DNA of 64,000 bases from sequence record NC_052661.1; one strand, written 5' to 3'. The position numbers and the translations under genes were made by a program. Within the stretch, counting starts at the first letter, position 1. Every line of letters begins with the position of its first letter. Below are positions 9,561-39,374 of the stretch, piece by piece. The notes under the pieces were generated by a model. The model was not told the origin of the DNA. It saw only the letters and a list, made by a program, of their open reading frames with translations, and ran no database searches. The DNA comes from Escherichia phage ukendt.

Positions 9561-9575
9561 TACTTATCTCCTCAC

Positions 9576-9800
9576 TTAAAATGGAAGTCTTTGAAGTTCA
9601 TCTCCTCCGATATCAAGTAATTTAGCAACATCTCGATCAGAAAGCAACTCTTTTCTTTGTAAAATATCCACAAGGGTTGCAAGAATGTCCTTAACGTCCC
9701 GATCACTGTTCTTCAAAAGTTCTCCTGCCGTCCCTACCCTATCTCCTACAGCAAAATATGTAACCATAAAACCTCCTACGCTAATCTGATTGCCAACCAC
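9576..9800 (-). CDS. hypothetical protein
   Basis: 74 aa ORF overlapping nrdG 3' end by 20 nt. Confidence 0.3.
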   Translation of the reverse strand: MVGNQISVGGFMVTYFAVGDRVGTAGELLKNSDRDVKDILATLVDILQRKELLSDRDVAKLLDIGGDELQRLPF

Positions 9801-24954: not shown

Positions 24955-26163
24955 ATGAGTAAAGCTAAAAGTTGGGAAGAATATAAAGCAGAATGCGAGA
25001 TCATAGCTCTCTCTAAAGGATATAAAATTTTAGGCCATAAAGAATGGAAAGGGTGTGAGACTAAACTCCTGATAGAATGTCCTGTGCACGGTGTATGGGA
25101 TACTTGTAAAATATCTAACTTTAAAAGTGGGAAGTCTTGCCCTTCTTGTGGTGAATTAACAAAAAGGGAGAAGAGAACGAAGAGCAGAGAGGACCAAGAG
25201 AAAGAGTGTGAAGAAGAAGCGTTAAAAAGAGGTTGGCGCTTCTTGGGTATCTACGGAGAATGGCTGAAAGCTAAAAAGACACGAGTAATCTTACGTTGTG
25301 ATAGGGGTCACGAGTTTAACACATCTACCATAGACAACTTTAAGAATAATAAACAAGGTTGTCCAGTTTGTCGTTTAGAGGATATAGGTAAACACAATAA
25401 GCTTTCAGACGATCAGCACATACAAGATTTCATGAGTACGGGTGTGTTTCCCGAAGGCACTACCTTCACTAATACAGGGGAAAAAGCTGGGAGGAGCGAA
25501 ATACTTTGGAGTGTATTTTGCCCTATCTGTGCTATAGACGAGTTTTCCAAAGCTGGGGTAGGAACGGGATATTTTATCGGTAGAGGTAGTTCATTAAAAC
25601 AGGGTATGCGCCCTTGTCGTTGTTCTGCCAGTTACAAATATTCTGAAGAAGAGATGACATTTAGAGCAAAAAGTGACGTAGAACGTAGAGGGTACGTGTG
25701 GTTGGGGTGGATCGGGAAAGCTTCTATACTTGGGGATTTTGAATATGGTTGCAAGGATCATGGGAAACATGTGTGTAGTGCTAACAATTGGTTAAATAAG
25801 GGGTGTGGTTGCCCTGGTTGTGCAGGTATGAATCAACAACAAGCCTACATTAATTATATTTACGATGAGCAAGATATTATCTGTGCACTGAAGTTTGGTA
25901 TTGCTAATAATAGTAATCGCCGTATCAAAGAACAAAATAGTCGTAATGTGTTTACTATGAAACAGAGCCAAGTGTGGCACTTCCCTACTGTGAAGCAATG
26001 CAAAGATGCAGAAAAGCGTTGTAAGCGTGTCCTTCACACGGAAGCAGTGAGCAAATATTCTATGCCAGATGGCTACACAGAGACAGTGGAGTTATCTTGC
26101 ATGGCATCAATACAAAATATTTATAAACTTTATGGTGGAACATTACAGGAGGAAACATGTTAG
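24955..26163 (+). CDS. Cys-rich repeat protein with four zinc-ribbon-like modules
   Basis: 402 aa; four repeats of G(Y/W)xxLG...CxxGHxF...GCPxC pattern. Confidence 0.5.
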   Translation: MSKAKSWEEYKAECEIIALSKGYKILGHKEWKGCETKLLIECPVHGVWDTCKISNFKSGKSCPSCGELTKREKRTKSREDQEKECEEEALKRGWRFLGIYGEWLKAKKTRVILRCDRGHEFNTSTIDNFKNNKQGCPVCRLEDIGKHNKLSDDQHIQDFMSTGVFPEGTTFTNTGEKAGRSEILWSVFCPICAIDEFSKAGVGTGYFIGRGSSLKQGMRPCRCSASYKYSEEEMTFRAKSDVERRGYVWLGWIGKASILGDFEYGCKDHGKHVCSANNWLNKGCGCPGCAGMNQQQAYINYIYDEQDIICALKFGIANNSNRRIKEQNSRNVFTMKQSQVWHFPTVKQCKDAEKRCKRVLHTEAVSKYSMPDGYTETVELSCMASIQNIYKLYGGTLQEETC

Positions 26164-27345: not shown

Positions 27346-27496
27346 TCCTATACAAACCCTTGTCTTTTTCAGTTTGCATCACTAGGATTCGATCTGAGTG
27401 GGTTCCTGAAGGTCTGCCAATAAGATTAAAGGTTATCTCAAATTCCCACTACCTATTATCTCAAAAATCCCTCAAATTATTTAAACTTTTTAAGAA

Positions 27497-27536
27497 TTTA
27501 CAAAAGTGAAAGTTGAAAACCAAAATTTAAAGTTTA
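27497..27536. repeat. direct repeat, copy 1 (TTTAAAGTTTA-containing unit)
   Basis: TTTACAAAAGTGAAAGTTGAAAACCAAAATTTAAAGTTTAG, imperfectly repeated at 27636. Confidence 0.5.
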
Positions 27537-27635
27537 GGAAAATTATCTTAAAATGTTAGATACAAAACAAAACTCAAAAGTCAAGGAAAATTTTAAAAAT
27601 TTTGCGCGCCCACAGTATTTAAAGTTTTTTTGCTT

Positions 27636-27675
27636 TTACAAAAATGAAAGTACAAAAGCAAAATTTAAAGTTTAC
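27636..27675. repeat. direct repeat, copy 2
   Basis: TTTACAAAAATGAAAGTACAAAAGCAAAATTTAAAGTTTAC. Confidence 0.5.
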
Positions 27676-27722
27676 AAAAATTTTTATGCAGGTGAAAATG
27701 AGAAGAGTTCTCATATGGAAAT

Positions 27723-27745
27723 GCAAATGATAATGATTCGCATTT
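27723..27745. promoter_or_regulatory. Fur-box-like operator (site A)
   Basis: GCAAATGATAATGATTCGCATTT, about 14 of 19 to the Fur consensus, 60 bp upstream of site B. Confidence 0.4.
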
Positions 27746-27761
27746 AAGTTTATAAATGAGA

Positions 27762-27803
27762 TTGATTCTTATTTAATAAGGTAAATGATAATCATTCTCA
27801 TTT
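27762..27803 (+). promoter_or_regulatory. promoter with Fur-box-like operator across the -10 (site B)
   Basis: TTGATT, 18 nt, TGATAAT; palindrome AAATGATAATCATTCTCATTT matches the Fur consensus GATAATGATAATCATTATC at 16 of 19 positions. Confidence 0.5.
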
Positions 27804-28021
27804 AGAGAATGACGCGCAGGGGCGGTGTTTGTCTCGCGCTCCCGTGTCCCCTCGCCATGTAATAAGAATAACAGATCCAGCCAGGAAAGCAAGAGATTAT
27901 TTTATCTTTACATTTCTTTACAAATATATAGCGCCCAGCCTACCGGCGATCAACCTTCCAACCAGTGCCTCTGGTATGTTAGCCCCGCCTTTACGCCGTG
28001 GGGTGGCGCTTCCTCTTCTGT

Positions 28022-28056
28022 ATGTAAAACAGTATAAGCCCGATCCCTGGGCTTGT
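28022..28056 (-). promoter_or_regulatory. sigma70-like promoter reading leftward into non-coding DNA
   Basis: On the minus strand: TTGACA, 17 nt (AGCCCAGGGATCGGGCT, itself a hairpin), TATACT. Confidence 0.4.
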
Positions 28057-28061
28057 CAAGA

Positions 28062-28328
28062 TTATTTTTTGTTTTCTTGCCAGGATAGGACACCTAACCA
28101 AAAATACATATCGCCCCGCGCCCCTGGTGGTATCTTGCTTTCCCCGCCGCCACTGCAAGCCCATAGATAACCATTTGCGAACGTATCAAAATGATCTATC
28201 TCTTCCACCTTATGATCGCCCAGGTTGAGAACGGTTTCAACCTTTAAGCCCGTTGCGCTTGCTACCTGGTGCACCGTGCCGCCTTGCCAGCCCAATGAGT
28301 GCATAAGGTGTAATGTAGTATTTGTCAT
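28062..28328 (-). CDS. hypothetical protein (divergent gene at left edge of cassette array)
   Basis: 88 aa ORF in GC-richer DNA; GC hairpin about 30 nt upstream of its ATG. Confidence 0.4.
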   Translation of the reverse strand: MTNTTLHLMHSLGWQGGTVHQVASATGLKVETVLNLGDHKVEEIDHFDTFANGYLWACSGGGESKIPPGARGDMYFWLGVLSWQENKK

Positions 28329-28437: not shown

Positions 28438-28496
28438 TTGACGTTCGCCAGGTGGCGGCATAATATTTACCACGTAGGGCGGCAATGGTGCCGCTC
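28438..28496 (+). promoter_or_regulatory. cassette promoter + 5' hairpin module
   Basis: TTGACG, 17 nt, TAATAT, then ACGTAGGGCGGCAATGGTGCCGCTCA hairpin. Confidence 0.55.
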
Positions 28497-28515
28497 ATTA
28501 TTTGGAGTTAAAATC

Positions 28516-28713
28516 ATGGCAACATTGCACATTGTGGCGAAAGCTGGACAAATAAACGTGGTAGTAAACGGTTTTACTGAGTTCAGTCATCCCCAGGATG
28601 ATCATGAAACGGTTTTATCTTTCATTGATTCACTGTTAGAAATGGGAGTAATTACAGAAGACCAGCACGCTACAAAATGCAAACGCGTTAATCAGATTGC
28701 AGGAATAGAATAA
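28516..28713 (+). CDS. cassette small protein
   Basis: 65 aa; own promoter-hairpin module; GGAG RBS. Confidence 0.5.
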   Translation: MATLHIVAKAGQINVVVNGFTEFSHPQDDHETVLSFIDSLLEMGVITEDQHATKCKRVNQIAGIE

Positions 28714-28720
28714 AAAGTAT

Positions 28721-28783
28721 TGACAACAACCAACAACCTGATAAGATGTATCACATAGGGCGGCGGAATGGTCCAGCCGCTCA
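28721..28783 (+). promoter_or_regulatory. cassette promoter + 5' hairpin module
   Basis: TTGACA, 16 nt, TAAGAT, then ACATAGGGCGGCGGAATGGTCCAGCCGC hairpin. Confidence 0.55.
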
Positions 28784-28805
28784 CAACAGAAGAGAGATTA
28801 TAATC

Positions 28806-29078
28806 ATGGCATCATATAGCGCAACAATGATCGTAGCTGGCACCACTGGTAAACCTATGAGCGGTGGCGGATCTTTCGCAAATATCAACATTGACGGGCG
28901 TTTATCCCTGGACGCAGCGATCACCGTGGCGCGGGAAACATTTAAGAAAGAATGTAAATTCAATAAACAAGATTATCTCGGTTTTGCTATTGAAAAAACC
29001 GCGCGTTTTGTTGATTATAAAAGCCCAAAAATGGTTGATACTACACTAAAAGCGCAAGATGTAGCGTTTTTGCTTTAA
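28806..29078 (+). CDS. cassette small protein
   Basis: 90 aa; promoter-hairpin module; start refined to 28806. Confidence 0.5.
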   Translation: MASYSATMIVAGTTGKPMSGGGSFANINIDGRLSLDAAITVARETFKKECKFNKQDYLGFAIEKTARFVDYKSPKMVDTTLKAQDVAFLL

Positions 29079-29082
29079 GGTT

Positions 29083-29136
29083 TGACATTAACGAATAATT
29101 TGTTAATATGTTACATAAAGCGGGAATAGTTCCCGC
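29083..29136 (+). promoter_or_regulatory. cassette promoter + 5' hairpin module
   Basis: TTGACA, 16 nt, TAATAT, then GCGGGAATAGTTCCCGC hairpin. Confidence 0.55.
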
Positions 29137-29154
29137 TATTTGTAAGGTGGTAGA

Positions 29155-29412
29155 ATGTTTTACATCAAATTAAAAGGTCACGTGATCGCGTTCAAGGATA
29201 ACGCTTTTTACAGATTAGCAAAGTATGCGTTAATACATCCCCATTATGTTTATATAAGGGGGCGTGATGAAATAAATATTTTTGATCAAACAACATGCGA
29301 GAACATCGAGATCCGCAAGGTTGGCGTACGTGACTATCGTACATCTTTCTACCCTTGCAAGGATTCAGCAAGTCTTTTTAAAGTATGCCGATTGTTGAAA
29401 AAAGGTGGTTAA
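29155..29412 (+). CDS. cassette small protein
   Basis: 85 aa; promoter-hairpin module. Confidence 0.5.
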   Translation: MFYIKLKGHVIAFKDNAFYRLAKYALIHPHYVYIRGRDEINIFDQTTCENIEIRKVGVRDYRTSFYPCKDSASLFKVCRLLKKGG

Positions 29413-29413
29413 T

Positions 29414-29971
29414 ATGGGCCGCGAATATGTGATCCAGTCTTGGGTAAAACATGAAGCAGATGATCCGCGCATCATTCCTGATTATCTTGTCGATGAATCC
29501 ACGGGCTATAGCGGGGAGCAAATAGGTAACAGATTAGCACGTAGTAACGGCAACGTAAAAGCGCGTTATGTGCGCCCTGGTTGGCTGGCAAATGGTAACG
29601 CTGATTTATCCAGTGCGGAAGATGCGAGCGACGGCGCGAAAGATAATCCCTTGTACAAAGTTGATCCGGCTTTTCGTGTCCTGGATGAATACCCCAACAA
29701 GATAGCGGCGCTTGATGAAGCACTAGAAAGTAAGCGCATCACCTGGACCGCTTACAACATGGCAAAAAACGTACTTGATGGTAAACTGATTCAAGCGGAG
29801 AGAAAATTAGCCAAAATTGCAGCCATAGCCCAGGAGGAAGACGAGGAGACAACGGAAGAGGAAGAGTACGAAGAGATCCCGCCGTTGTTGTGTGTTGATG
29901 CTTTTCCTGATTATCAGCCGACAGAGGAAGAAAAAAGGATCGCCCTAGAAAACTTTGAAAATAGTCTTTGA
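29414..29971 (+). CDS. cassette protein with highly acidic C-terminus
   Basis: 186 aa; EEDEETTEEEEYEE tail; co-transcribed with preceding gene. Confidence 0.5.
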   Translation: MGREYVIQSWVKHEADDPRIIPDYLVDESTGYSGEQIGNRLARSNGNVKARYVRPGWLANGNADLSSAEDASDGAKDNPLYKVDPAFRVLDEYPNKIAALDEALESKRITWTAYNMAKNVLDGKLIQAERKLAKIAAIAQEEDEETTEEEEYEEIPPLLCVDAFPDYQPTEEEKRIALENFENSL

Positions 29972-30026
29972 CATATCGCCGCCACTAGCATAATATTTAC
30001 CACGTAGGGCGGCAATGGTGCCGCTC
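29968..30026 (+). promoter_or_regulatory. cassette promoter + 5' hairpin module
   Basis: TTGACA, 17 nt, TAATAT, then GCGGCAATGGTGCCGC hairpin. Confidence 0.55.
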
Positions 30027-30053
30027 ATAGTGAAATTATACAAGAGGCTTACA

Positions 30054-30149
30054 ATGATTAATAAAGAAAATAGCTTGACGGTTGGAACGATTAACGGTAT
30101 CATTCTAGCCGTTCCATTTTGGATTGTAGTAGCGGTTATTATTTTCTAA
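30054..30149 (+). CDS. cassette hydrophobic peptide
   Basis: 31 aa; own promoter-hairpin module. Confidence 0.35.
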   Translation: MINKENSLTVGTINGIILAVPFWIVVAVIIF

Positions 30150-30157
30150 AAATATTC

Positions 30158-30218
30158 TTGACAACGTTTTTTAATCTGATAAGATGTATCACATAGGGCG
30201 GCGGAATACTTCCCCGCC
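30158..30218 (+). promoter_or_regulatory. cassette promoter + 5' hairpin module
   Basis: TTGACA, 16 nt, TAAGAT, then GGGCGGCGGAATACTTCCCCGCC hairpin. Confidence 0.55.
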
Positions 30219-30239
30219 AAAACAAAAAAGGGTAACACA

Positions 30240-30602
30240 ATGAGCAAGCAAATCAATACTATCATGTTTAATCTGGTATCTTTCCGCGATGATATGAAAA
30301 ATTTACCACGTGAAACGGTTGATATTCATGTTTCAGCTTATCGCGCCCTTATTGACATGTTACCGCTAAAACGTGATCAACATGCCGCTAATATGATGCT
30401 TAATGCTATGCTTAAAAAGATGATTCAAACGGATCTTACTCTGGCATATGAGTATCAAGGGCGCTTATATGCAACTTACAACAAGGCGGTACCTGGTCTG
30501 GGAAGTACCGAAGAGTTGCACGGCTTAAACCTGGATCAAAACACTTGGGATAGTATGCGCCGCGTTATGGTATGGGCCGAAAGCGGTAAAATTTACGAAT
30601 AA
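30240..30602 (+). CDS. cassette small protein
   Basis: 120 aa; promoter-hairpin module. Confidence 0.5.
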   Translation: MSKQINTIMFNLVSFRDDMKNLPRETVDIHVSAYRALIDMLPLKRDQHAANMMLNAMLKKMIQTDLTLAYEYQGRLYATYNKAVPGLGSTEELHGLNLDQNTWDSMRRVMVWAESGKIYE

Positions 30603-30608
30603 AAACGG

Positions 30609-30668
30609 TTGACACTGTTTAAACTTCTGGTATAGTTTACCACATAGGGCGGGAAGTGGTTTCCCGCC
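30609..30668 (+). promoter_or_regulatory. cassette promoter + 5' hairpin module
   Basis: TTGACA, about 17 nt, TATAGT, then GGCGGGAAGTGGTTTCCCGCC hairpin. Confidence 0.55.
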
Positions 30669-30690
30669 AACAATTAAAAAGGTTATCATC

Positions 30691-31056
30691 ATGGCTATTA
30701 ATATTAATGTTTCCTCTTATGCTACCCTGGCTGACACGGCTAAAATTGAATTATCCAGCATTGAGGCGGTGCATATTAGCGCCCGTCGCTGGTTTCAACA
30801 GTCCTACGGTAACACATATTTTTCTTTAATGGTTGACGTTGAGATCGGCGGTAAACTGATCGAGGTGGTTAACGTTCCGTTTCAATATGGTTATGGTGAT
30901 CATTTTGATACCGTCGCCCTGGAAGAATTTAGCAAGGTCGTTAATATGGAAGGTAAAGAGTTTTCACGCGGCGCGTATCTTTCCCGTTTTTGCCGTGACA
31001 ATGGGATCACTGTATACAGTCATGCAAGCGATGTTAAACGTAAAAAAGATCTATAA
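30691..31056 (+). CDS. cassette small protein
   Basis: 121 aa; promoter-hairpin module. Confidence 0.5.
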   Translation: MAININVSSYATLADTAKIELSSIEAVHISARRWFQQSYGNTYFSLMVDVEIGGKLIEVVNVPFQYGYGDHFDTVALEEFSKVVNMEGKEFSRGAYLSRFCRDNGITVYSHASDVKRKKDL

Positions 31057-31063
31057 AAAGCAT

Positions 31064-31121
31064 TGACAGCACGAATAAAAAGAGTAAACTGTATTACATA
31101 GAGAGCGGGAACACTTCCCGC
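31064..31121 (+). promoter_or_regulatory. cassette promoter + 5' hairpin module
   Basis: TTGACA, 16 nt, TAAACT, then GCGGGAACACTTCCCGC hairpin. Confidence 0.55.
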
Positions 31122-31145
31122 CTCACTGAAAAAGAGAGAAAAATC

Positions 31146-31385
31146 ATGGCTAAATCTAAAATGTACAACGGTCACAAAAACAAAACTCATTGGAATGTAA
31201 GCCTTTGGATTAATAACGATGAATCATTGTATCGGTTTGCATTGGGATTGATCAATGAGTGCGGTAATAAAGATCAGGCGGCTGATTTAATGTGCTACCG
31301 TTTGAAACAGGATGGAATCACTACAACGCCAGACGGCTTTAAGTATAGTAAAACTGCAATCCGCGCCGCTATGGTTGGAATGTAA
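31146..31385 (+). CDS. cassette small protein
   Basis: 79 aa; promoter-hairpin module. Confidence 0.5.
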   Translation: MAKSKMYNGHKNKTHWNVSLWINNDESLYRFALGLINECGNKDQAADLMCYRLKQDGITTTPDGFKYSKTAIRAAMVGM

Positions 31386-31394
31386 TAAAAACAG

Positions 31395-31454
31395 TTGACA
31401 ACGTTTAAAATTAGTGTAAGATGTATCACATAGGGCGGGAAGTGGTTTCCCGCC
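31395..31454 (+). promoter_or_regulatory. cassette promoter + 5' hairpin module
   Basis: TTGACA, 16 nt, TAAGAT, then GGCGGGAAGTGGTTTCCCGCC hairpin. Confidence 0.55.
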
Positions 31455-31476
31455 AACAACAGAGAGATTAAAGATT

Positions 31477-31704
31477 ATGGCTATCAATATTGTTCGTGTA
31501 TCCGGCACCGTTGGCAGTTCCCAGGTTGTAGCAGTTATCACAGAGAAGAAAGGGGATGATCTTCACTCTTCCTTGAATAGCTGGGCGGTCGCTAACTTCG
31601 GGCAATGGTCGAGCGTTGAGTACATCGAATCCTACCAGGTGCCGACGATTAGCCTAACCGATCTCAACGTTGATCGCTTGTTGTGCCTGGATGAATTAAT
31701 CTGA
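31477..31704 (+). CDS. cassette small protein
   Basis: 75 aa; promoter-hairpin module. Confidence 0.5.
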   Translation: MAINIVRVSGTVGSSQVVAVITEKKGDDLHSSLNSWAVANFGQWSSVEYIESYQVPTISLTDLNVDRLLCLDELI

Positions 31705-31714
31705 AAAAAGATTG

Positions 31715-31772
31715 TTGACACCGGAAAGAAAAAGAGTAGAATATATTACATAGGGCGGCAATGGTGCCGCTC
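31715..31772 (+). promoter_or_regulatory. cassette promoter + 5' hairpin module
   Basis: TTGACA, 16 nt, TAGAAT, then GCGGCAATGGTGCCGC hairpin. Confidence 0.55.
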
Positions 31773-31795
31773 ACAACAGAAGAGAGATTATCACG

Positions 31796-32011
31796 ATGGC
31801 TAATATCCGCACTTTACTGAAAAATGCAAGTCAAGTTTTATTTTCAGATGACGAGTATTTCAATAAAGACATTACAGGCGTGAAAAATTTAAAAGACGTG
31901 AAGGATGTTATCGGTATTCGTGGATCTTTACGTAAAGGTGATTACTATGGTAACAAGGTGCAATATAAACTGTCAAAGGATTACAATTTTACTTTGACAA
32001 TTATTTCATAA
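31796..32011 (+). CDS. cassette small protein
   Basis: 71 aa; promoter-hairpin module. Confidence 0.5.
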   Translation: MANIRTLLKNASQVLFSDDEYFNKDITGVKNLKDVKDVIGIRGSLRKGDYYGNKVQYKLSKDYNFTLTIIS

Positions 32012-32017
32012 AACCGC

Positions 32018-32077
32018 TTGCAATACTGCAAAAATAAAGTAAACTATATTCATCAAGGCGGGGAATGGTCCGCCGCC
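32018..32077 (+). promoter_or_regulatory. cassette promoter + 5' hairpin module
   Basis: TTGCAA, 16 nt, TAAACT, then GGCGGGGAATGGTCCGCCGCC hairpin. Confidence 0.5.
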
Positions 32078-32101
32078 TAACAAAGAGAAGAGGAAAACAT
32101 C

Positions 32102-32275
32102 ATGATCACTTTCGCTACCCGTGAAGCCGCTCGCAACGTTGCACGTAAAGTTAACGCCGCCAACCTGGGCGCTACACTTAAAGCCCCGGTGAAAGATGAA
32201 TCAGGCAAATGGATCTTCCCTGGTCTGCGTCATGCTGACAAGTTAGGTACTTTAAGCCTTAAAAATAATCGTTGA
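32102..32275 (+). CDS. cassette small protein
   Basis: 57 aa ORF not in track; promoter-hairpin module. Confidence 0.4.
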   Translation: MITFATREAARNVARKVNAANLGATLKAPVKDESGKWIFPGLRHADKLGTLSLKNNR

Positions 32276-32309
32276 CTTTTCGTTATAGCGCCTTACAATG
32301 GGCGCTATA
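32272..32309 (+). promoter_or_regulatory. variant cassette promoter with palindrome across the -10
   Basis: TTGACT, 16 nt, TACAAT, embedded in TATAGCGCC...GGCGCTATA inverted repeat. Confidence 0.45.
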
Positions 32310-32342
32310 GAGAAGAGAAACCACTATTAACAAGGAAACATC

Positions 32343-32564
32343 ATGATTACTTTTGCTATTGTCGCCGTTGTTGCTGGTCAGGTTTACGTAAATGATACAT
32401 TCACCACAGAAGACAAGGCAGCAGGAGACATCACCGCCGCTTATAATGAGTGCAAGGCAGTAGAAAGGATGTTAGCGCCTTGTATGCTAATGAGTGAACG
32501 CCAGGACGGAATAACAGTATTTACTAACATTGAAACAGGGTACCAAATGGTAGTAACAAAATAA
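32343..32564 (+). CDS. cassette small protein
   Basis: 73 aa; variant promoter with palindrome. Confidence 0.5.
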   Translation: MITFAIVAVVAGQVYVNDTFTTEDKAAGDITAAYNECKAVERMLAPCMLMSERQDGITVFTNIETGYQMVVTK

Positions 32565-32567
32565 AGC

Positions 32568-32624
32568 TTGACACCGATTTAATTTTTAGTAAACTGTTAC
32601 ACGTAGGGCGGGAATAGTTCCCGC
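32568..32624 (+). promoter_or_regulatory. cassette promoter + 5' hairpin module
   Basis: TTGACA, 16 nt, TAAACT, then GCGGGAATAGTTCCCGC hairpin. Confidence 0.55.
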
Positions 32625-32643
32625 TCAAAAAGAGAGAAAGACC

Positions 32644-32997
32644 ATGAAAGCACAAAATGCAATTAAAGAGTACATCCTTGCCGCTATCGATTTTAATGAT
32701 TACGGTATTACAACCGAAAAAGAGAAGATCGCGGAATTGATGCGCCGTTTTAATTCCGAGTACTGGTACCCTGATAACCAATCACGTTTTAATTATAGTA
32801 TTGTTAAAGCACTTGCATCATGGTTACAAGGCTTGCCATCAGATATCAATATCGCTTTCGAATATTGGGAAATTGATCGCCTGTTAACATCCTGGGGATA
32901 CATTAAAGAGAATAGCAGCGATGATAAAATCCAACGAGAAAGGGAAAATTATTGGCTTTATATTGCAGGCGTGATCCTTGCTTGCTCTTATGAATGA
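32644..32997 (+). CDS. cassette small protein
   Basis: 117 aa; promoter-hairpin module. Confidence 0.5.
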   Translation: MKAQNAIKEYILAAIDFNDYGITTEKEKIAELMRRFNSEYWYPDNQSRFNYSIVKALASWLQGLPSDINIAFEYWEIDRLLTSWGYIKENSSDDKIQRERENYWLYIAGVILACSYE

Positions 32998-33003
32998 TAA
33001 ACC

Positions 33004-33058
33004 TTGACAATTTTACAAAACAGTTTAAATTAACAATATAGCGGCAATGGTGCCGCTC
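33004..33058 (+). promoter_or_regulatory. cassette promoter + 5' hairpin module
   Basis: TTGACA, A/T-rich -10 region, then GCGGCAATGGTGCCGC hairpin. Confidence 0.5.
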
Positions 33059-33076
33059 ATATGAAGAGGAAACAAA

Positions 33077-33223
33077 ATGAATACATCTAATCGCGCAGAA
33101 AAAATTCAATCTTCCAAGATCCGCAAGGCCTGGAACGAGGAAGTGATCCGCAAAGGCGACAAGCGCAATAAAACAAAGCGCGGGAAGAGTGACAAATATA
33201 ATTGGATGGATTTAGAGGATTAA
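33077..33223 (+). CDS. cassette small basic protein
   Basis: 48 aa Lys/Arg-rich; promoter-hairpin module; followed by terminator. Confidence 0.4.
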   Translation: MNTSNRAEKIQSSKIRKAWNEEVIRKGDKRNKTKRGKSDKYNWMDLED

Positions 33224-33230
33224 CATAACA

Positions 33231-33257
33231 AGGGCGCATCAAGCGCCCTTTCTTTTT
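33231..33257 (+). terminator. rho-independent terminator inside the cassette array
   Basis: AGGGCGC-ATCAA-GCGCCCT followed by TTCTTTTT. Confidence 0.6.
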
Positions 33258-33278
33258 ACATGTAGAGGATAAACAAAA

Positions 33279-33464
33279 ATGATTTTAAACGAGCTTAAAA
33301 CAGCCTACAACGCAACATTAAAAATAGCCGTGCGTTACCGTGATGCGTACGGTTTTATCGCGCAGGGCGTGATCCTGGGCTTTTCTGACGATGGTTTGAT
33401 CTATGTTGATGCACATCACAACAAGGTTAAACCGGAAAACGTTATCAATATAAAATATCTTTAA
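33279..33464 (+). CDS. cassette small protein
   Basis: 61 aa; RBS GAGGA. Confidence 0.45.
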   Translation: MILNELKTAYNATLKIAVRYRDAYGFIAQGVILGFSDDGLIYVDAHHNKVKPENVINIKYL

Positions 33465-33470
33465 AAGTGG

Positions 33471-33527
33471 TTGACACCATAACCGGACCTGTTAAACTGT
33501 ATTACATCAGGCGGGGAATAGTTCCCC
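33471..33527 (+). promoter_or_regulatory. cassette promoter + 5' hairpin module
   Basis: TTGACA, 16 nt, TAAACT, then GGGGAATAGTTCCCC hairpin. Confidence 0.55.
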
Positions 33528-33550
33528 CACCATACAAAAAGGTAAATATT

Positions 33551-33757
33551 ATGATCACCGCAAAACAAGAAAAAATCATTATCGACGTTGCAGCCGTTGC
33601 CGCTATTGCTATTATTGGATCTTATTATGATACCCGTTTCCCGTCGGCTATGCATGAGATCGCCGCCGTTGCATCAGTCGGCGTGCTGTTTTACGTTGGT
33701 AAACGCTATTTATCACCAATGATTAACAAGCTGACACCGTGGAAAAATAAAGGTTGA
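33551..33757 (+). CDS. cassette small membrane protein
   Basis: 68 aa; promoter-hairpin module; start refined to 33551. Confidence 0.5.
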   Translation: MITAKQEKIIIDVAAVAAIAIIGSYYDTRFPSAMHEIAAVASVGVLFYVGKRYLSPMINKLTPWKNKG

Positions 33758-33810
33758 TCCTGTTTTATATTGTGTTATAGTTATCGTGTAGGGCGGCAAT
33801 GGTGCCGCGC
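33754..33810 (+). promoter_or_regulatory. cassette promoter + 5' hairpin module
   Basis: TTGATC, 16 nt, TATAGT, then GCGGCAATGGTGCCGC hairpin. Confidence 0.5.
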
Positions 33811-33829
33811 CCCCTTTGAGGATGAAATC

Positions 33830-34114
33830 ATGAGTAAAGCTAACACCGTGCTAATGTTTTCCCTGATTAATGATCCCGCTTACTTGTCCAACATGACGCA
33901 GGAGGGTAACACATTAACGGCAACATTCACCAATAAGCTTGACCGAGTGATCATCATCTCACTGAAAACAGTTAGTAAAGGCTTTTACTCGTTAGCTTAT
34001 CATTGGATCACCGATACCGATGAGACAAGCCAGGACTATAGCGCCCCTTTCCCTGAATCAATGGCACGGGAGATCATCGCCGCCGTTGTAAATGATGGTT
34101 TGTTTACTGCATAA
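33830..34114 (+). CDS. cassette small protein
   Basis: 94 aa; shares 25-nt initiation region with gene at 24955. Confidence 0.5.
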   Translation: MSKANTVLMFSLINDPAYLSNMTQEGNTLTATFTNKLDRVIIISLKTVSKGFYSLAYHWITDTDETSQDYSAPFPESMAREIIAAVVNDGLFTA

Positions 34115-34131
34115 ATAATTTAGAAAAAGGC

Positions 34132-34188
34132 TTGCAATCATTTTGAGATAGTGTATATTTAATTCATAGGGCGGCGGGAATAGTTCCC
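34132..34188 (+). promoter_or_regulatory. cassette promoter + 5' hairpin module
   Basis: TTGCAA, 16 nt, TATATT, then GGGAATAGTTCCC hairpin. Confidence 0.5.
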
Positions 34189-34211
34189 AAAGCAAACGAG
34201 AGGATTACACG

Positions 34212-34330
34212 ATGAGCAAGTACACAGTAGAATACACGGTAGAAAATCCGGCAGTATCCGAAGGTAAAAAGATGACATTTGCCATCAGTATAATCGCTTT
34301 CGTTGTCACTATCTTATCAATCATCTTATA
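34212..34330 (+). CDS. cassette hydrophobic peptide
   Basis: 39 aa with C-terminal TM segment; promoter-hairpin module. Confidence 0.35.
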
Positions 34331-34341
34331 AGGTGCACACC

Positions 34342-34503
34342 ATGAAAACAACAGATATTATCAAAGAGATCGCCCTTGCCGCTGGCGTTGAGATCGAGGA
34401 AGTGATCGCGCTCAATCTTACAGAAAACGATCTGCGCAACTATGAAGCGGAAAGCGTGAAAGCAAGCGGTGCGATCCTGGCATATAATCCGGCTAACAAG
34501 TAA
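34342..34503 (+). CDS. cassette small protein
   Basis: 53 aa ORF. Confidence 0.35.
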   Translation: MKTTDIIKEIALAAGVEIEEVIALNLTENDLRNYEAESVKASGAILAYNPANK

Positions 34504-34512
34504 GGGGATAAC

Positions 34513-34623
34513 ATGAATCCGAAAGATATGCAAGCATGGAAAGGGTACGACGATCTGAGCGCCTTGCGTAATAAGTCCAGCCGTAACCTTAGACGATTGC
34601 AAGCAAAGAAAAAGAAAAAATAG
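34513..34623 (+). CDS. cassette small basic protein
   Basis: 36 aa ending KKKKK. Confidence 0.3.
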   Translation: MNPKDMQAWKGYDDLSALRNKSSRNLRRLQAKKKKK

Positions 34624-34624
34624 T

Positions 34625-34682
34625 TTGACAAGTCCGCTTAATCTGATAATATGTATCTTGTAGGGCGGCAATGGTGCCGCTC
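34625..34682 (+). promoter_or_regulatory. cassette promoter + 5' hairpin module
   Basis: TTGACA, 16 nt, TAATAT, then GCGGCAATGGTGCCGC hairpin. Confidence 0.55.
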
Positions 34683-34701
34683 ACAAGAAGAGAGAAAAAT
34701 C

Positions 34702-34986
34702 ATGAAAATCACAAAAAGCCTAACTAATTATGCAGCACGTCGCGGATTATGTTTAACCGTTGAAAACTTAGGGAAAGAAGACTTTTTGTGTTTTTGGGAG
34801 CTTGAAAACGATTGCGAGTGGATGTTTTCCTATTCTATCTGCGAAGATCAAAACGGTTGTTTGTTAACCTGGCGCGGTAATATTTATTTACCGGAAGAAA
34901 TTAAAGAGGAATTACCAGGTACGATCATGACAGAGAGACAGCTTAAGGAAATGATTAATTTTGTAGGGCAAAACATTAAAAAATAA
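34702..34986 (+). CDS. cassette small protein
   Basis: 94 aa; promoter-hairpin module. Confidence 0.5.
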   Translation: MKITKSLTNYAARRGLCLTVENLGKEDFLCFWELENDCEWMFSYSICEDQNGCLLTWRGNIYLPEEIKEELPGTIMTERQLKEMINFVGQNIKK

Positions 34987-34987
34987 T

Positions 34988-35050
34988 TTGACAGCACGCA
35001 AACAACGTAGTAAAGTTTACCACATAGGGCGGCGGAATGGTCCACCGCTC
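34988..35050 (+). promoter_or_regulatory. cassette promoter + 5' hairpin module
   Basis: TTGACA, 17 nt, TAAAGT, then GGGCGGCGGAATGGTCCACCGC hairpin. Confidence 0.55.
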
Positions 35051-35071
35051 ACAACAGAAGAGAAACAAATC

Positions 35072-35242
35072 ATGATCCCGACTATGTTTTATGTATCGCG
35101 CAAAGGTCACAATATTTTTTGGTCTGAAGATTTAAATGAAGCCATGACGTTTGCCCGTGATCGTGTTGCTATCGGTGGCGTTAACATCACCGTAACCGAT
35201 GAAAATGGCATTGAATACTATAACGGCGACGATGAAGAGTAA
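35072..35242 (+). CDS. cassette small protein
   Basis: 56 aa; promoter-hairpin module. Confidence 0.45.
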   Translation: MIPTMFYVSRKGHNIFWSEDLNEAMTFARDRVAIGGVNITVTDENGIEYYNGDDEE

Positions 35243-35249
35243 TTAATGA

Positions 35250-35267
35250 GGCGGGGAGTACCCCGCC
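35250..35267 (+). promoter_or_regulatory. cassette-type GC hairpin without recognisable -35/-10
   Basis: GGCGGGGAGTACCCCGCC, 20 nt upstream of the ATG at 35287. Confidence 0.4.
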
Positions 35268-35286
35268 GTCAATAAAGAGGTAAATC

Positions 35287-35556
35287 ATGAAAATATCATT
35301 GGACGTTGCAATCAAGGCCATCGAATCCGGTTACATCCTGGTAAAAGATGATAAGGCTAAAATAGTGCATCATGTTAACAAGGAAACAGGCGAGAGCATG
35401 ATCACATATAAAGCCGCCTACTTTCTCCAATCAGTAGCAGATCCGCGCGTACAACGCCAGGTTACAGCGGCTATTGCTAAAAAATTATGTGCTTTACAGG
35501 GTGCAAGTTTTAACGAGATTGCCCCGTGTTTTGAGTGGTCAAGCTTGAAAAAATAA
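35287..35556 (+). CDS. cassette small protein
   Basis: 89 aa; preceded by GC hairpin only. Confidence 0.5.
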   Translation: MKISLDVAIKAIESGYILVKDDKAKIVHHVNKETGESMITYKAAYFLQSVADPRVQRQVTAAIAKKLCALQGASFNEIAPCFEWSSLKK

Positions 35557-35557
35557 T

Positions 35558-35619
35558 TTGACAACAATTATAAATCGGGTAGAATGTATTTCGTAGGGCG
35601 GGGCAATAAGGCAACGCCC
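35558..35619 (+). promoter_or_regulatory. cassette promoter + 5' hairpin module
   Basis: TTGACA, 16 nt, TAGAAT, then GGGCG...CGCCC hairpin. Confidence 0.5.
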
Positions 35620-35634
35620 ATTAATGAGGGTAGA

Positions 35635-35742
35635 ATGATGTTAGAGAAAATTTTCACGGTTGTAATAGTGGGCCTGGCGTTATCGGTTGGAGTGGTTGCA
35701 ACTATGGCTAACATGATCCTATCTTCCCACGGTATCGGCTAA
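35635..35742 (+). CDS. cassette hydrophobic peptide
   Basis: 35 aa single TM; promoter-hairpin module. Confidence 0.35.
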   Translation: MMLEKIFTVVIVGLALSVGVVATMANMILSSHGIG

Positions 35743-35752
35743 GGTGAAACAA

Positions 35753-35968
35753 ATGATCACGAATAAGACAGGTAAAACGGAATTTTTACGCGGCTTGCAA
35801 GTTGGTAAACCTGAGATCTGGCATTGTACTAAATCCGCGCATAATGAAATGAAAGATTTTACCGCTACTTTACAACGTGTTAAAATATCTATCACACAGA
35901 AAAAAGCCTTGTTAGTAGTAGAAAACGAGATCCCGCAAACTATTATTATTGTCGAGCGTACAGCATGA
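35753..35968 (+). CDS. cassette small protein
   Basis: Start refined to ATG 35753. Confidence 0.45.
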   Translation: MITNKTGKTEFLRGLQVGKPEIWHCTKSAHNEMKDFTATLQRVKISITQKKALLVVENEIPQTIIIVERTA

Positions 35969-36351
35969 AAACAGAAATCATTATTGAAATCATCAACGGT
36001 TATAAAGAAGCCTTTATTTTTGCTGAATCAGCAAGGGATCATGAAGGTAATTTTATTGAAAACTTAGACGATTATGATTTTTCTCCTAGCGCGGACGAAC
36101 GGATCGCCCAGGATGTAACAGCCTTTATTAATGCTAATCTTGCCGCTATCTCTGAGGCAATGAGCGACGGCGCAACAGCCAACCAGATCGGGAATGATTT
36201 ACATTTTACCCGTAACGGTCACGGCGTAGGCTTTTGGGATCGCCCTGAAATATACACCACTAACACGGCGAACCGCCTAACCAATGCAGCTAAGTTTATG
36301 CCGAACGTGTCGGCTTACATTGGTGAAGATAATTTGATTTATATTGAATAA
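35965..36351 (+). CDS. cassette small protein
   Basis: 128 aa; translationally coupled. Confidence 0.5.
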   Translation: MKTEIIIEIINGYKEAFIFAESARDHEGNFIENLDDYDFSPSADERIAQDVTAFINANLAAISEAMSDGATANQIGNDLHFTRNGHGVGFWDRPEIYTTNTANRLTNAAKFMPNVSAYIGEDNLIYIE

Positions 36352-36357
36352 AAAGTA

Positions 36358-36415
36358 TTGACACAGATCGCCAGTGTGCTAATATTTACCACGTAGGGCG
36401 GCAATGGTGCCGCCG
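36358..36415 (+). promoter_or_regulatory. cassette promoter + 5' hairpin module
   Basis: TTGACA, 16 nt, TAATAT, then GGCGGCAATGGTGCCGCC hairpin. Confidence 0.55.
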
Positions 36416-36432
36416 ATAATGAGGAAAGTAAA

Positions 36433-36732
36433 ATGGAAACTATCGCTATTGTTACCGTAGAAAAACTGGTTGTTGGTGATGTATTCGCGTTAATGGTGCC
36501 TAACAGCAGCAAGCTGGGCGCTTATGAAGTAATGGATCATAAAAATGAATCATTTGGCGACGGTTGCACAATGGCGGTAAAATCTTTAAAGGATGGAATT
36601 ATCCGCCAGGCTAACTGGCACAAAGGGAATCAAGTCGGTTTAATATCAGCTAATTTCTTGCCAGAAGAGCAAACGTTAGACCAACTATCAGGCGGTAAGA
36701 CGTTAGCCGAACTACTGGAAACAGCGATCTAA
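36433..36732 (+). CDS. cassette small protein
   Basis: 99 aa; promoter-hairpin module. Confidence 0.5.
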   Translation: METIAIVTVEKLVVGDVFALMVPNSSKLGAYEVMDHKNESFGDGCTMAVKSLKDGIIRQANWHKGNQVGLISANFLPEEQTLDQLSGGKTLAELLETAI

Positions 36733-36739
36733 TCGACAA

Positions 36740-36755
36740 GGGGCGGCAACGCCCC
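36740..36755 (+). promoter_or_regulatory. cassette-type GC hairpin without recognisable promoter
   Basis: GGGGCGGCAACGCCCC between stop at 36732 and ATG at 36786. Confidence 0.35.
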
Positions 36756-36785
36756 CATTAAACGCAATAGGAAGAGGATAGACAC

Positions 36786-37076
36786 ATGAAAAAGATGATC
36801 GCAGTAGTTGCCCTGGTTGTTGGTATTAACGCGCCTGTAATGGCGAAAGAGTTGCCAGAATCCATCACGTTAACCGATATCAACGCAATAAACCGGATCG
36901 GCGTTAATTATCGCCTATGCCTTGCCGCTAAAACTTTCCAGGACGGCACAACAGAGTACTACGGATTCGAGGGTACCCGCTGCGGTGAGCTTGCACGCGA
37001 CCTTAAGGAAGATCCAGACCTTGAGGCCATACCGATGACCGTAAACGGTAAAGCTTACGTAAACCGCCAACAATGA
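36786..37076 (+). CDS. cassette secreted protein
   Basis: 96 aa; signal peptide MKKMIAVVALVVGINAPVMA. Confidence 0.5.
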   Translation: MKKMIAVVALVVGINAPVMAKELPESITLTDINAINRIGVNYRLCLAAKTFQDGTTEYYGFEGTRCGELARDLKEDPDLEAIPMTVNGKAYVNRQQ

Positions 37077-37207
37077 GAAAGGTAATCATCACAATGGGGA
37101 TCGTAGTAGCAACGCTGGCGCTTATCCCCTTCATGGTTGAACATGTGCTGATCAGTGTTGTCCTTGTAGTCAGTGACCTATTGGAAACGGTTGGCACCTG
37201 GTTTTAA
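37073..37207 (+). CDS. cassette hydrophobic peptide
   Basis: 44 aa ORF overlapping upstream stop (ATGA). Confidence 0.35.
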   Translation: MRKVIITMGIVVATLALIPFMVEHVLISVVLVVSDLLETVGTWF

Positions 37208-37381
37208 GATAATAAATAGGGCTTGCAATAGTCCTATTTTTTGTTATACTTATTGAACGGGCGGCACCTGGGAGCAGGGGAAGATAATCACCGGAAGACC
37301 CCGCTATATATTGATAACTAACGCCTATCAAACAACAAAACATCAAAGGAACAAACTATCAAATCTTTACAATTCTACCTA

Positions 37382-37855: not shown

Positions 37856-37882
37856 AGGGCGCACAAAGCGCCCTTTCTTTTT
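37856..37882 (+). terminator. rho-independent terminator at the right end of the cassette array
   Basis: AGGGCGC-ACAAA-GCGCCCT followed by TTCTTTTT; near-identical to the terminator at 33231. Confidence 0.6.
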
Positions 37883-38019
37883 GCCCGAACAATGTTGATA
37901 GCTTTCGCCTATGAAAAACCGACACAGAACAAAACTGAATAAATCACGGTATCAAGCTAATCGACCATTAAACGAATAACCATACATCCCAGGGCAACAG
38001 GCTGTTAGAGAGCTATTTA

Positions 38020-38360
38020 GAGCGGTTAAAATCGATCAACAACCAACAACAAACCATCAAAAACACCCTTTTACCTCCTTTCTAGTGCAATGATAACCAT
38101 TATCATCTACCCATGATTATCTATGCAATATAAGCGCATAATTATAATGTTGATAATAGTTCGCAACAACTAACCAACAAACAACATAAAACAATAAGCA
38201 AACTAATCATAATCAAAGGAATAATAGCAAGATGATTGATAACGACAAACAATCAAACCATGATGAATACTAAGCAAAACAACGATAACACGACAAAACA
38301 ACCAACTAACGAACAATAACAAACGAAACCATTAAAATAACAACTATTAGCAAAATAGTG
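38020..38360. repeat. A+C-rich low-complexity tract with AAC/CAA repeats
   Basis: Long runs such as CAACAACCAACAACAAACCATCAAAAACACCC with almost no G on the plus strand and no ORF. Confidence 0.55.
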
Positions 38361-38489
38361 CCTAAATGAAATCATTACAAAACGAATCATTCACAGGATC
38401 ATCATTAGCACGCTATGCCGGACACATAGCGAGCTAATAATAAGCCAACTACACCCCAACAATCATAACCATCGGTGACGGTTATTTCT

Positions 38490-38520
38490 TGTTACTGCGT
38501 AGCTTGCAATAATTGCAAGC
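38490..38520. repeat. perfect palindrome CTTGCAATAATTGCAAG
   Basis: 17-bp inverted repeat within the non-coding region. Confidence 0.45.
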
Positions 38521-38843
38521 GTAATGACGCTTACACTTATTGCGCTGGCTTATTATTAGCATTATATGTAATTACCAAGATCATAACATTAGCGCAATAA
38601 CAATAATCATTGTGGTAATTACAAGATGAAATCATTAGCAAGATGAATAATTGCACGTAGCAACATGAGCGAATAGCGACAGGTTGCATAGTGTGCACAT
38701 AGTGTATAAACATACAAGAAAATAAAGGCTAATCTTTTGGGGGCGAATACTATCGCGTAGCGATATGTTGAGCACCTTCTCTTAAACGTAAATAAAATCA
38801 GAAAATTCTTGATTTATTTTAGTTTTTATGTTAATAAACGTTT

Positions 38844-38864
38844 AAATAATAATCATTCTCATAT
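38844..38864. promoter_or_regulatory. Fur-box-like operator (site C)
   Basis: AAATAATAATCATTCTCATAT shares the core AATCATTCTCAT with sites B and D. Confidence 0.4.
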
Positions 38865-39002
38865 AAATAATAGTCTGCTTGTCATGAGCGGGATTAGTTG
38901 ACAATGTTCCGTCATATGATGAAGTTGCCAAACCATTGATAAATAAGTGTTTGTGTGATTTATAATCAAGTGGCCCACCTTGTCGCTATGTTGGCATGAG
39001 CC

Positions 39003-39044
39003 TTGCATAAGTCATTGAATACGAATGATAATTATTCTCATTCG
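39003..39044 (+). promoter_or_regulatory. promoter with Fur-box-like operator across the -10 (site D)
   Basis: TTGCAT, 17 nt, TGATAAT; palindrome CGAATGATAATTATTCTCATTCG. Confidence 0.5.
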
Positions 39045-39374
39045 CATGATATTTGGGAATTGTCGCTGCGTGGACCTGACGGCCCGAAAATTCGCGTTAA
39101 GCACTTCTTACGTATGCGCCATGATTTTTGCCATATGATATTGATTCTATTAGATATTCTTGCCATGAAACAAGGTGTGTCGAAATAATCTCTCCCCGTA
39201 GATATTTTGGGTTACTTTTTATACAAGAGTGGGGTGTCAAAAATAATCGGTATATATGGGATAATTGATAGGAATCCCCTATGGTAATTCGATTGTAATT
39301 CCTTAAGATTGATCGTATGATGTTGGTGATTGATGATTGCCATGAAAGATGGCTAACGATGAGAGGAGATTGTC

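Follow-up and report, generated by a model that had tools for sequence, protein, structure and literature searches.

Boxes for the ferric uptake regulator (Fur) are familiar as operators of host genes or of cargo genes that prophages carry; the stx1 promoter, carried on a temperate phage, is Fur-regulated. Within Fur clusters, overlapping sites are offset by 6 (or 3) bp (PMC2189734). Phage T5 provides a second point of reference in its annotated "injection stop signal" (iss), for which the comparative study of Davison describes palindromes and DRC repeats, argues for DnaA and makes no mention of Fur (10.1101/866236). Here we analyze a stretch of 64,000 nucleotides of Escherichia phage ukendt (NC_052661.1; this whole stretch is called the window), in which an array of Fur-box-like palindromes occupies positions 27697-27802. 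The setting is the non-coding DNA of a lytic phage, where the boxes form phased arrays and lie both within the virion terminal repeat and at the inner boundary of the early-gene block at the genome end. The element is conserved across phage families and is apparently undescribed. We assign a probability of about 0.5 to the reading that the palindromes are high-affinity sites for the iron-loaded Fur of the host, which would form a conserved local cis element in large lytic phages of the Enterobacterales.

Results

A phased array of Fur-like palindromes

The window DNA is 96-99% identical to the phAPEC8-like E. coli myophages (Phapecoctavirus, Stephanstirmvirinae), with UP17 as the best hit (99.3% identity). 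The array sits within a gap of ~1.2 kb between two gene runs, in a region that is AT-rich and repetitive. A preliminary description of this sequence had singled out two palindromes as Fur-box-like, and both are present. GCAAATGATAATGATTCGCATTT occupies 27723-27745 and AAATGATAATCATTCTCATTT occupies 27783-27803, the second starting 60 bp after the first. They match the Fur consensus GATAATGATAATCATTATC at 14 of 19 positions (27723-27741) and at 16 of 19 (27781-27799), where the chance expectation for three or fewer mismatches to this consensus is 0.04 per window. The array holds four imperfect palindromes rather than two, 19-bp sites that start at 27697, 27726, 27755 and 27784 with a pitch of exactly 29 bp (2.76 helical turns); repeat finders place the beginnings of the repeat units at 27696, 27725, 27754 and 27783. 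The two extra copies are weaker, one lying between the palindromes first noted and the other upstream of them. A 21-mer derived from the array has eight matches with at most three mismatches in the window, compared with 0.02 expected from shuffles, and the same search also recovers, from a second large non-coding gap, the copies at 38844 and 39023.

A Fur matrix derived from host promoters

The Fur matrix was derived from genome sequence. Unseeded, palindrome-constrained expectation-maximization was run on 12 Fur-repressed promoter regions of E. coli K-12 MG1655 (fepA-fes, fepD-entS, fepB-entC, fhuA, fecA, fecI, cirA, fiu, fhuE, tonB, exbB and fhuF). The result, AATGATAATnATTATCATT with 16.3 bits, equals the single-dimer model of PMC2189734. 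When the window is scanned with this matrix, the sites rank in the order 39024 (24.6 bits), 27784 (24.2), 27726 (22.2), 38845 (19.4) and 38089 (17.1), followed by 27755 (16.0), 27720 (15.6) and 27697 (14.3). Both palindromes of the preliminary description are thereby placed among the top sites of the window and above the training sites, which score 7.7-21.5 bits and are all exceeded by the best phage sites (22-25 bits). In a leave-one-out evaluation the genuine promoters reach only 11-20.6 bits, with the exception of the fecA region, in which no site appears. Six hits of at least 16 bits are observed in the 64-kb window, compared with 0.14 in dinucleotide shuffles, and the exact tail probability for a score of at least 24 bits is 1e-9 per position.

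The four phased sites differ in strength. S1 (27697-27715, AATGAGAAGAGTTCTCATA), in the first 29-bp unit, is the weakest at 14.3 bits. S2 (27726-27744, AATGATAATGATTCGCATT, 22.2 bits), which is the left-hand site of the preliminary description, overlaps a companion shifted by 6 bp (27720-27738, 15.6 bits), so that the pair spans 27720-27744. S3 (27755-27773, AATGAGATTGATTCTTATT, 16.0 bits) forms the third unit and has TTGATT as its center. S4 (27784-27802, AATGATAATCATTCTCATT, 24.2 bits, ~1e-9 per position) is the right-hand site of the preliminary description. The 6-bp-shifted companions are found at strong phage sites in both gaps (27720/27726 and 39018/39024).

The specificity of the matrix was judged on host and phage DNA. 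All hits of at least 14 bits in 66 kb of E. coli DNA fall in Fur-regulated promoter regions; these regions are the training set, so only the ~63 kb of non-training DNA, which holds no false hit of at least 14 bits, is informative on specificity. Across ~151 kb of phage genome a single hit of at least 14 bits lies outside the two non-coding gaps (13165, 15.2 bits), and the other 87 kb of the sister genome Schickermooser contains nothing above 12.4 bits. De novo motif discovery restricted to the phage gaps gives AATGAGAATCATTCTCATT, whose correlation with the Fur matrix is r = 0.94 (r = 0.90 for the information profiles); positions 6, 10 and 14 are the least specified in both. The phage consensus favors GAGAAT/ATTCTC over GATAAT/ATTATC, and GAGAAT and ATTCTC variants are also found in the host sites of fecI, fhuE, fhuA and exbB. 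The identity of these palindromes as putative Fur boxes is strongly supported by the matrix and motif comparisons.

Sites in the virion terminal repeat

The second large non-coding gap (37875-39374) is the AT-richest part of the window, and it holds three further Fur-like sites, all of them present in Schickermooser. R1 (38089-38107, AATGATAACCATTATCATC) scores 17.1 bits. S5 (38845-38863, AATAATAATCATTCTCATA) scores 19.4 bits, and S6 (39024-39042, AATGATAATTATTCTCATT) scores 24.6 bits and overlaps a companion shifted by 6 bp that starts at 39018 (12.9 bits; 39018-39042 together with S6). Korf et al. reported a 328-bp terminal repeat in Schickermooser (PMC6563267). The Schickermooser record begins and ends with the same 329 nt, which align to 38771-39099 of the window, so that S5 and S6 lie inside the direct terminal repeat of the virion DNA, S5 being 74 nt inside its left edge and S6 ending 57 nt from its right edge. 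Records of other relatives break at 38770, 39023 and 39098. As several GenBank records of relatives begin or end at the repeat edges, the window spans the physical ends of the genome. The four-site array is then ~11.35 kb from the right virion end, or 7.5% of 151,194 bp, and a cassette array of small genes occupies most of this right-terminal block. The left and right gaps are similar in the Fur motif only, and for this reason we ruled out a segmental duplication between them. A separate observation concerns the left part of the second gap (37875-38770), where the plus strand is A/C-rich with many short repeats (AATCATTAGCA, CAACAA) and which includes the lowest-GC stretch of the window.

Conservation in two myophage subfamilies

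Besides Phapecoctavirus, six genera contain this module, among them Justusliebigvirus, Vequintavirus, Henunavirus (on Erwinia), Mydovirus (on Proteus and Klebsiella) and Certrevirus (on Pectobacterium), as do uncultured relatives with 50-52% GC. Its order is constant: AT-rich direct repeats come first, one to five Fur boxes follow, and the boxes lead into GAATGAC-GGGCAGG-CGGTGTTTGTCTC. The boxes, often with the 29-bp pitch as well, are kept in seven genera from two myophage subfamilies. In the alignment of these genera S4, the box nearest to the fixed continuation, is the best-conserved block of the whole intergenic region and is nearly invariant, while the spacers between boxes differ. Iron-responsive control had been put forward as unusual for a lytic phage. 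No published description of such boxes was found, but in the genomes of large lytic Enterobacterales phages the boxes are widespread. Our literature search returned no account that links T5 or these myophages with Fur binding sites. A host origin of the array was ruled out, as it has no blastn match among 5,426 E. coli genomes.

The T5 injection stop region

In a sensitive blastn search, the 500 bp around the array match T5-like phages in the untranslated end of their terminal repeat (55-80 nt at 79-87% identity, with one exact match of 31 nt). A 30-nt stretch at S2, GAAATGCAAATGATAATGATTCGCATTTAA, is identical in T5-like phages. In T5 itself (NC_005859) the Fur matrix finds sites of 19-24 bits, with 6-bp companions, at 9552-9715; the arrays of T5-like phages show the same 6-bp offset. 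These lie within the annotated iss, with the main cluster ~30 nt from the nick at 7.9%. The first-step-transfer DNA holds, in its non-coding repeat regions, all hits of at least 13 bits in the 111.6 kb of T5 (9552-9715 and 6098). The T5 array sits between convergent transcription units and has no downstream gene. No paper that joins phage T5 with the ferric uptake regulator was found in the literature search.

The relationship has limits. No Fur-box array lies in the first-step-transfer-like region of the Vibrio T5-like phage D342 (98000-114017), a phage with homologues of A1 and A2, and the array is therefore not universal in T5-like phages. The A1 and A2 proteins of T5 have no tblastn match better than E = 0.2 in the window and none in the rest of the sister genome; among the matches listed, all A2 homologues are in T5-sized genomes. 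A tblastn comparison of all T5 open reading frames (ORFs) of at least 40 amino acids with a phAPEC8-like genome gave 19 ORF stretches with matches, mainly nucleotide-metabolism enzymes, phosphatases, PhoH, Sir2 and T5orf172-like nucleases. This search found no recognizable DNA-binding regulator common to the two, and a phage regulator shared with T5 was rejected on that ground and because, among the matches listed, A2 was seen in T5-like phages only. We also rejected paired DnaA boxes of the T5 kind: TTWTNCACA occurs four times in the window, fewer than by chance, and never within 15 kb of either Fur cluster. Separately, an ORF of 402 amino acids at 24955-26163, with three CapR homology domains and a weak MUG113/T5orf172-like match, distantly resembles the T5 "endonucleases" T5.141 and T5.154; it belongs to the operon that borders the Fur array on the left.

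Elements flanking the array

On its left flank the gap is bordered by a plus-strand operon whose last gene (NADAR/DUF1768) ends at 27254, and on its right flank by a run of small plus-strand genes whose first member starts at ~28438. AT-rich direct repeats precede the boxes at 27433-27682. They consist of a 24-nt repeat of the TTATCTCAAA type and two 72-nt copies (27473-27544 and 27611-27682) that are 82% identical and spaced by 138 bp. Analogous triple repeats stand ahead of the boxes in the Vequintavirinae. An origin, packaging or promoter function is conceivable for the upstream repeats.

A conserved non-coding block (27803-28035) is fused to S4. It reads GAATGAC-GGGCAGG-CGGTGTTTGTCTC ... 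TCTTTACAnTTCTTTACAAA ... CTACCGGCGATCCACC ..., with further conserved segments CTACCGGCGATCCACCTTCCAACC and GTTAGCCCCGCC...CGCCGTGGGGTGGCG, and in the seven-genus alignment its indels are not multiples of 3. Some relatives carry an annotated plus-strand ORF of 113 amino acids at 27829-28170; this coding reading was rejected, as it has no PHROG match and the indels are non-triplet. The block has no Rfam match at gathering or E-value thresholds and contains no tRNA. RNAalifold gives positive covariation terms on both strands, the covariation being weak, and the GC element that follows S4 folds no better than shuffled sequences (z = -0.16). A structured RNA beside the boxes was set aside on these results. 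Between the block and the next gene lies a GC hairpin (28036-28054) that is terminator-like on both strands and overlaps a minus-strand TTGACA-17-TATACT match. The gene itself (28062-28328, minus strand, read towards the Fur array; phrog_19316, E = 2e-59) encodes a conserved protein of 88 amino acids of unknown function, with tblastn homologues in 149 phage records at identities down to 35-42%, which extend to Klebsiella and Vibrio phages.

Promoters and the cassette array

The preliminary description had placed the right-hand palindrome over the -10 element of a TTGATT, 18 nt, TGATAAT promoter. These strings are present (TTGATT at 27762-27767, TGATAAT at 27786-27792), but the canonical GATAAT is 19 nt from the -35. 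We rejected the pair as a promoter: besides its 19-nt spacing, it is not listed by the sigma-70 scan, and its -35 is the center of S3 and is not conserved in relatives.

It had further been suggested that transcription entering the cassette array is under iron-responsive control. Between S4 and the first array gene (~28438) lie the conserved block, the hairpin and the minus-strand gene (28328->28062), and there is no plus-strand gene downstream of the boxes before this convergent gene. The array, in 28438-37300, comprises ~15 cassettes of one layout: an A-rich stretch, a TTGACA-17-TAAGAT/TAATAT promoter (often with TG), a hairpin and a small ORF. In each, ~10 nt (gtatcacata) follow the -10 and a stable GGGCGG...CCGCYC hairpin precedes the ORF; the first cassette hairpin has a stability of z = -3.25. 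The matrix scan of the window found no Fur box at any cassette promoter. With a convergent conserved gene and a hairpin intervening and with strong, box-free promoters of the cassettes' own, we rejected transcription from the boxes into the array as their main role. The preliminary description is partly supported: the putative Fur boxes are present, and the proposed control of the cassette array does not hold. A mini-ORF between two cassettes (30054-30149), encoding a hydrophobic peptide of 31 amino acids, carries a conserved Fur-like match at 30086 (12.5-13.5 bits). This site, within a small ORF and with 12.5 bits, we treated as a chance match.

A different promoter could still make the array a classical Fur operator. 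In the Vequintavirinae S4 exactly fills the 18-bp spacer of TTGAAT-18-nAGAAT, an arrangement that is below threshold and degenerate in this phage, where the hexamers are GTAAAT and GAGAAT (27806-27811). On this explanation S1-S3 would be auxiliary sites, and low iron would release a plus-strand transcript from near 27818 over the conserved block, perhaps antisense to the 88-amino-acid gene. To act as operators is the default role of Fur boxes, and several details of the locus fit it. The spacing from the box to GAAT and the G, A, A and T columns are invariant in the seven genera, and TTG stands ahead of the box in most Vequintavirinae. The succession of a -10-like hexamer, 9 nt and GGGCGG... 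resembles that of the 15 cassette promoters (TAAGAT, 10 nt, GGGCGG hairpin), and a 9/12 promoter-like match at 27671-27699 has a -10 that overlaps S1. Yet the hexamers match at no more than 8 of 12 positions, are worse in this phage and are not listed by the promoter scan, and the GC element after the box stays at shuffle level where the cassette hairpin is clearly stable. Nor does the presumed transcript hold an ORF, an Rfam family or more than weak covariation. An operator also leaves the boxes of the terminal repeat unexplained, and in T5 the array, set between convergent units, has no downstream gene to regulate. We regard the operator as possible, with the odds clearly against it.

Discussion

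A proposed local cis element bound by host Fur

Because boxes also occur in the terminal repeat and, in T5, lie between convergent units, we favor a cis element bound by host Fur over a gene switch. In an iron-replete cell, Fur dimers would coat the ~110 bp of the array (27697-27802) together with the terminal-repeat boxes. The resulting protein-DNA complex would be repressive or blocking and would act locally, on the conserved non-coding block fused to S4, on any weak promoter embedded there and on the DNA ends; the promoters of the cassette array would not be its target. The process blocked may be initiation, read-through or the handling of DNA at the ends. When iron is scarce, the complex would dissolve.

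Several points weigh against this reading. Binding by Fur is deduced from sequence. The preference for GAGAAT/ATTCTC could mark a distinct specificity, and the promoter scan finds no convincing sigma-70 promoter overlapping the boxes in the window, so that a classical operator role lacks this support. To our knowledge, host Fur operators are not built with a regular 29-bp pitch, and this regularity may indicate a different protein. The array is missing from the Vibrio T5-like phage, despite a Vibrio Fur-box consensus that is, as far as we know, essentially the same. The 30-nt identity with T5-like phages fits lateral spread as well as selection for a host factor. And a small, fast-evolving phage DNA-binding protein common to these families could escape tblastn.

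Such a protein is the main alternative without Fur. The palindromes would then be sites of a phage-encoded dimeric binder (an early regulator, an origin- or end-binding protein, or a packaging factor), their likeness to Fur boxes would be coincidence or mimicry, and they would have spread laterally among co-infecting phages. The 29-bp pitch with adjacent AT-rich direct repeats recalls origin or packaging loci, and the location of two boxes 57-74 nt from the terminal-repeat cut sites is also in agreement with this proposal. So are the shifted consensus, the identity shared with T5-like phages and the Vibrio phage without an array. Against it stands the resemblance itself: that an unrelated 19-bp palindrome would reach 24 bits by chance has p ~1e-9 per position, and here the weakly specified positions coincide too. 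In addition, the first-step-transfer proteins of T5 have no homologue in the window, the A2 homologues listed are all in T5-sized genomes, and none of the 19 T5 ORF stretches that match the phAPEC8-like genome is a recognizable regulator. We consider a phage-encoded binder unlikely, though it deserves to be kept in mind.

A more far-reaching version of the host-Fur proposal makes the array the working part of a DNA-entry checkpoint common to T5-like, rV5-like and phAPEC8-like phages. During entry of the first ~8% of the genome, iron-loaded Fur already in the cell would seize the phased boxes, and the terminal block of small early genes (the right 11.35 kb, from the array at 27.7 kb to the boxes of the terminal repeat) would be halted or anchored. 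If true, this would make Fur the host cell factor responsible for the T5 "injection stop signal", known for 60 years, and would add two myophage subfamilies to the phages with two-step entry. We rate this version as a long shot.

The boxes might also serve as a sponge, with nothing regulated on the phage. Replicating genome copies, each with at least seven strong sites, would soak up Fur, derepress host iron uptake and feed the iron-dependent ribonucleotide reductase. Multicopy Fur boxes derepress the regulon, which is the principle of the Fur titration assay; many of the phage sites are stronger than host operators, and the phage encodes class Ia ribonucleotide reductase subunits. A sponge, however, has no need for a fixed position, a 29-bp phasing or fusion to a conserved neighbor, and in T5, which destroys host DNA and stops host transcription early (A1 annotation), derepression would be useless. 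Titration is accordingly an improbable function of the array. A neutral tandem repeat or a chance AT-rich palindrome, suggested by the AT-rich and repetitive character of the region, carries practically no weight, since the pattern of conservation already refutes it: the cores are kept while the spacers differ, across genera and at 50-52% GC, and eight matches are observed where shuffles give 0.02.

If Fur binds these boxes, a large phage group would have the iron sensor of its host built into its infection programme or its DNA handling; among its members are phages of groups commonly isolated for therapeutic use. The outcome of infection could then depend on iron status, which is strongly variable in the gut and in infected tissue. 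The injection-stop region of T5, cis-acting and still unexplained, would gain a concrete candidate protein. E. coli BL21 was protected from both T5 and the T5-like phage CEV2 when FeoB or YdiE was overexpressed, an effect that Mutalik et al. (2020) ascribe to Fur repression of fhuA (PMC7553319). Fur acting on the phage's own boxes would be a possible additional route to this protection.

Comparison with known systems

The phage sites share with the E. coli Fur operators (fhuA, fepA-fes, fecI, cirA, fhuF and others) the 19-bp palindrome in register (AATGAnAATnATTnTCATT), the weakly specified positions and the overlapping companions shifted by 6 bp (PMC2189734). The 19-bp inverted repeat can also be read as the 7-1-7 arrangement TGATAATnATTATCA, to which the phage sites conform. 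They differ from the host operators in their higher scores, the 29-bp pitch and the lack of a clear promoter overlap, and in their location, in a terminal repeat and in a fixed module ~11 kb from the genome end.

Fur boxes on temperate phages, as upstream of sitABCD in lambdoid coliphages (PMC6969025), likewise place a host Fur box on phage DNA. In those phages single operators serve accessory ("moron") genes that the prophage expresses (PMC6969025), whereas the boxes analyzed here form phased arrays in the non-coding DNA of strictly lytic phages and have no iron-related cargo gene.

Two further systems invite comparison. Phage lambda carries an IHF site in cosB, and the boxes of the terminal repeat resemble it in being sites for a host protein (here, putatively, Fur) tens of bp from the position of a virion DNA end; the protein and the type of end are different, and nothing links the boxes here to packaging. 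Replication-origin iterons are initiator sites in direct repetition that adjoin an AT-rich unwinding region, usually together with the gene of the initiator or with DnaA boxes; the array has phased repeats and AT-rich direct repeats, but its units are palindromic and its pitch is 2.76 turns, with no DnaA boxes and no initiator-like neighbor found.

The closest counterpart is the T5 iss, or Repeat Region 3, with its palindromes and DRC repeats. The two are directly similar in sequence, and in T5 the motif is confined to this region. Both are large, untranslated, repeat-rich gaps ~8% from one genome end (7.9% in T5, 7.5% here), and both genomes have a further set of sites close to the physical end. 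They differ in that the present locus has neither DnaA-box pairs nor A1/A2 genes, that its terminal repeat measures 329 bp as against 10 kb in T5, with the left array in unique sequence, and that the T5-like phages have a pitch of 35 bp in place of 29 bp; two-step DNA entry, moreover, is not known for phAPEC8-like phages. The relation of the array to the T5 iss is thus one of likeness and not of full membership.

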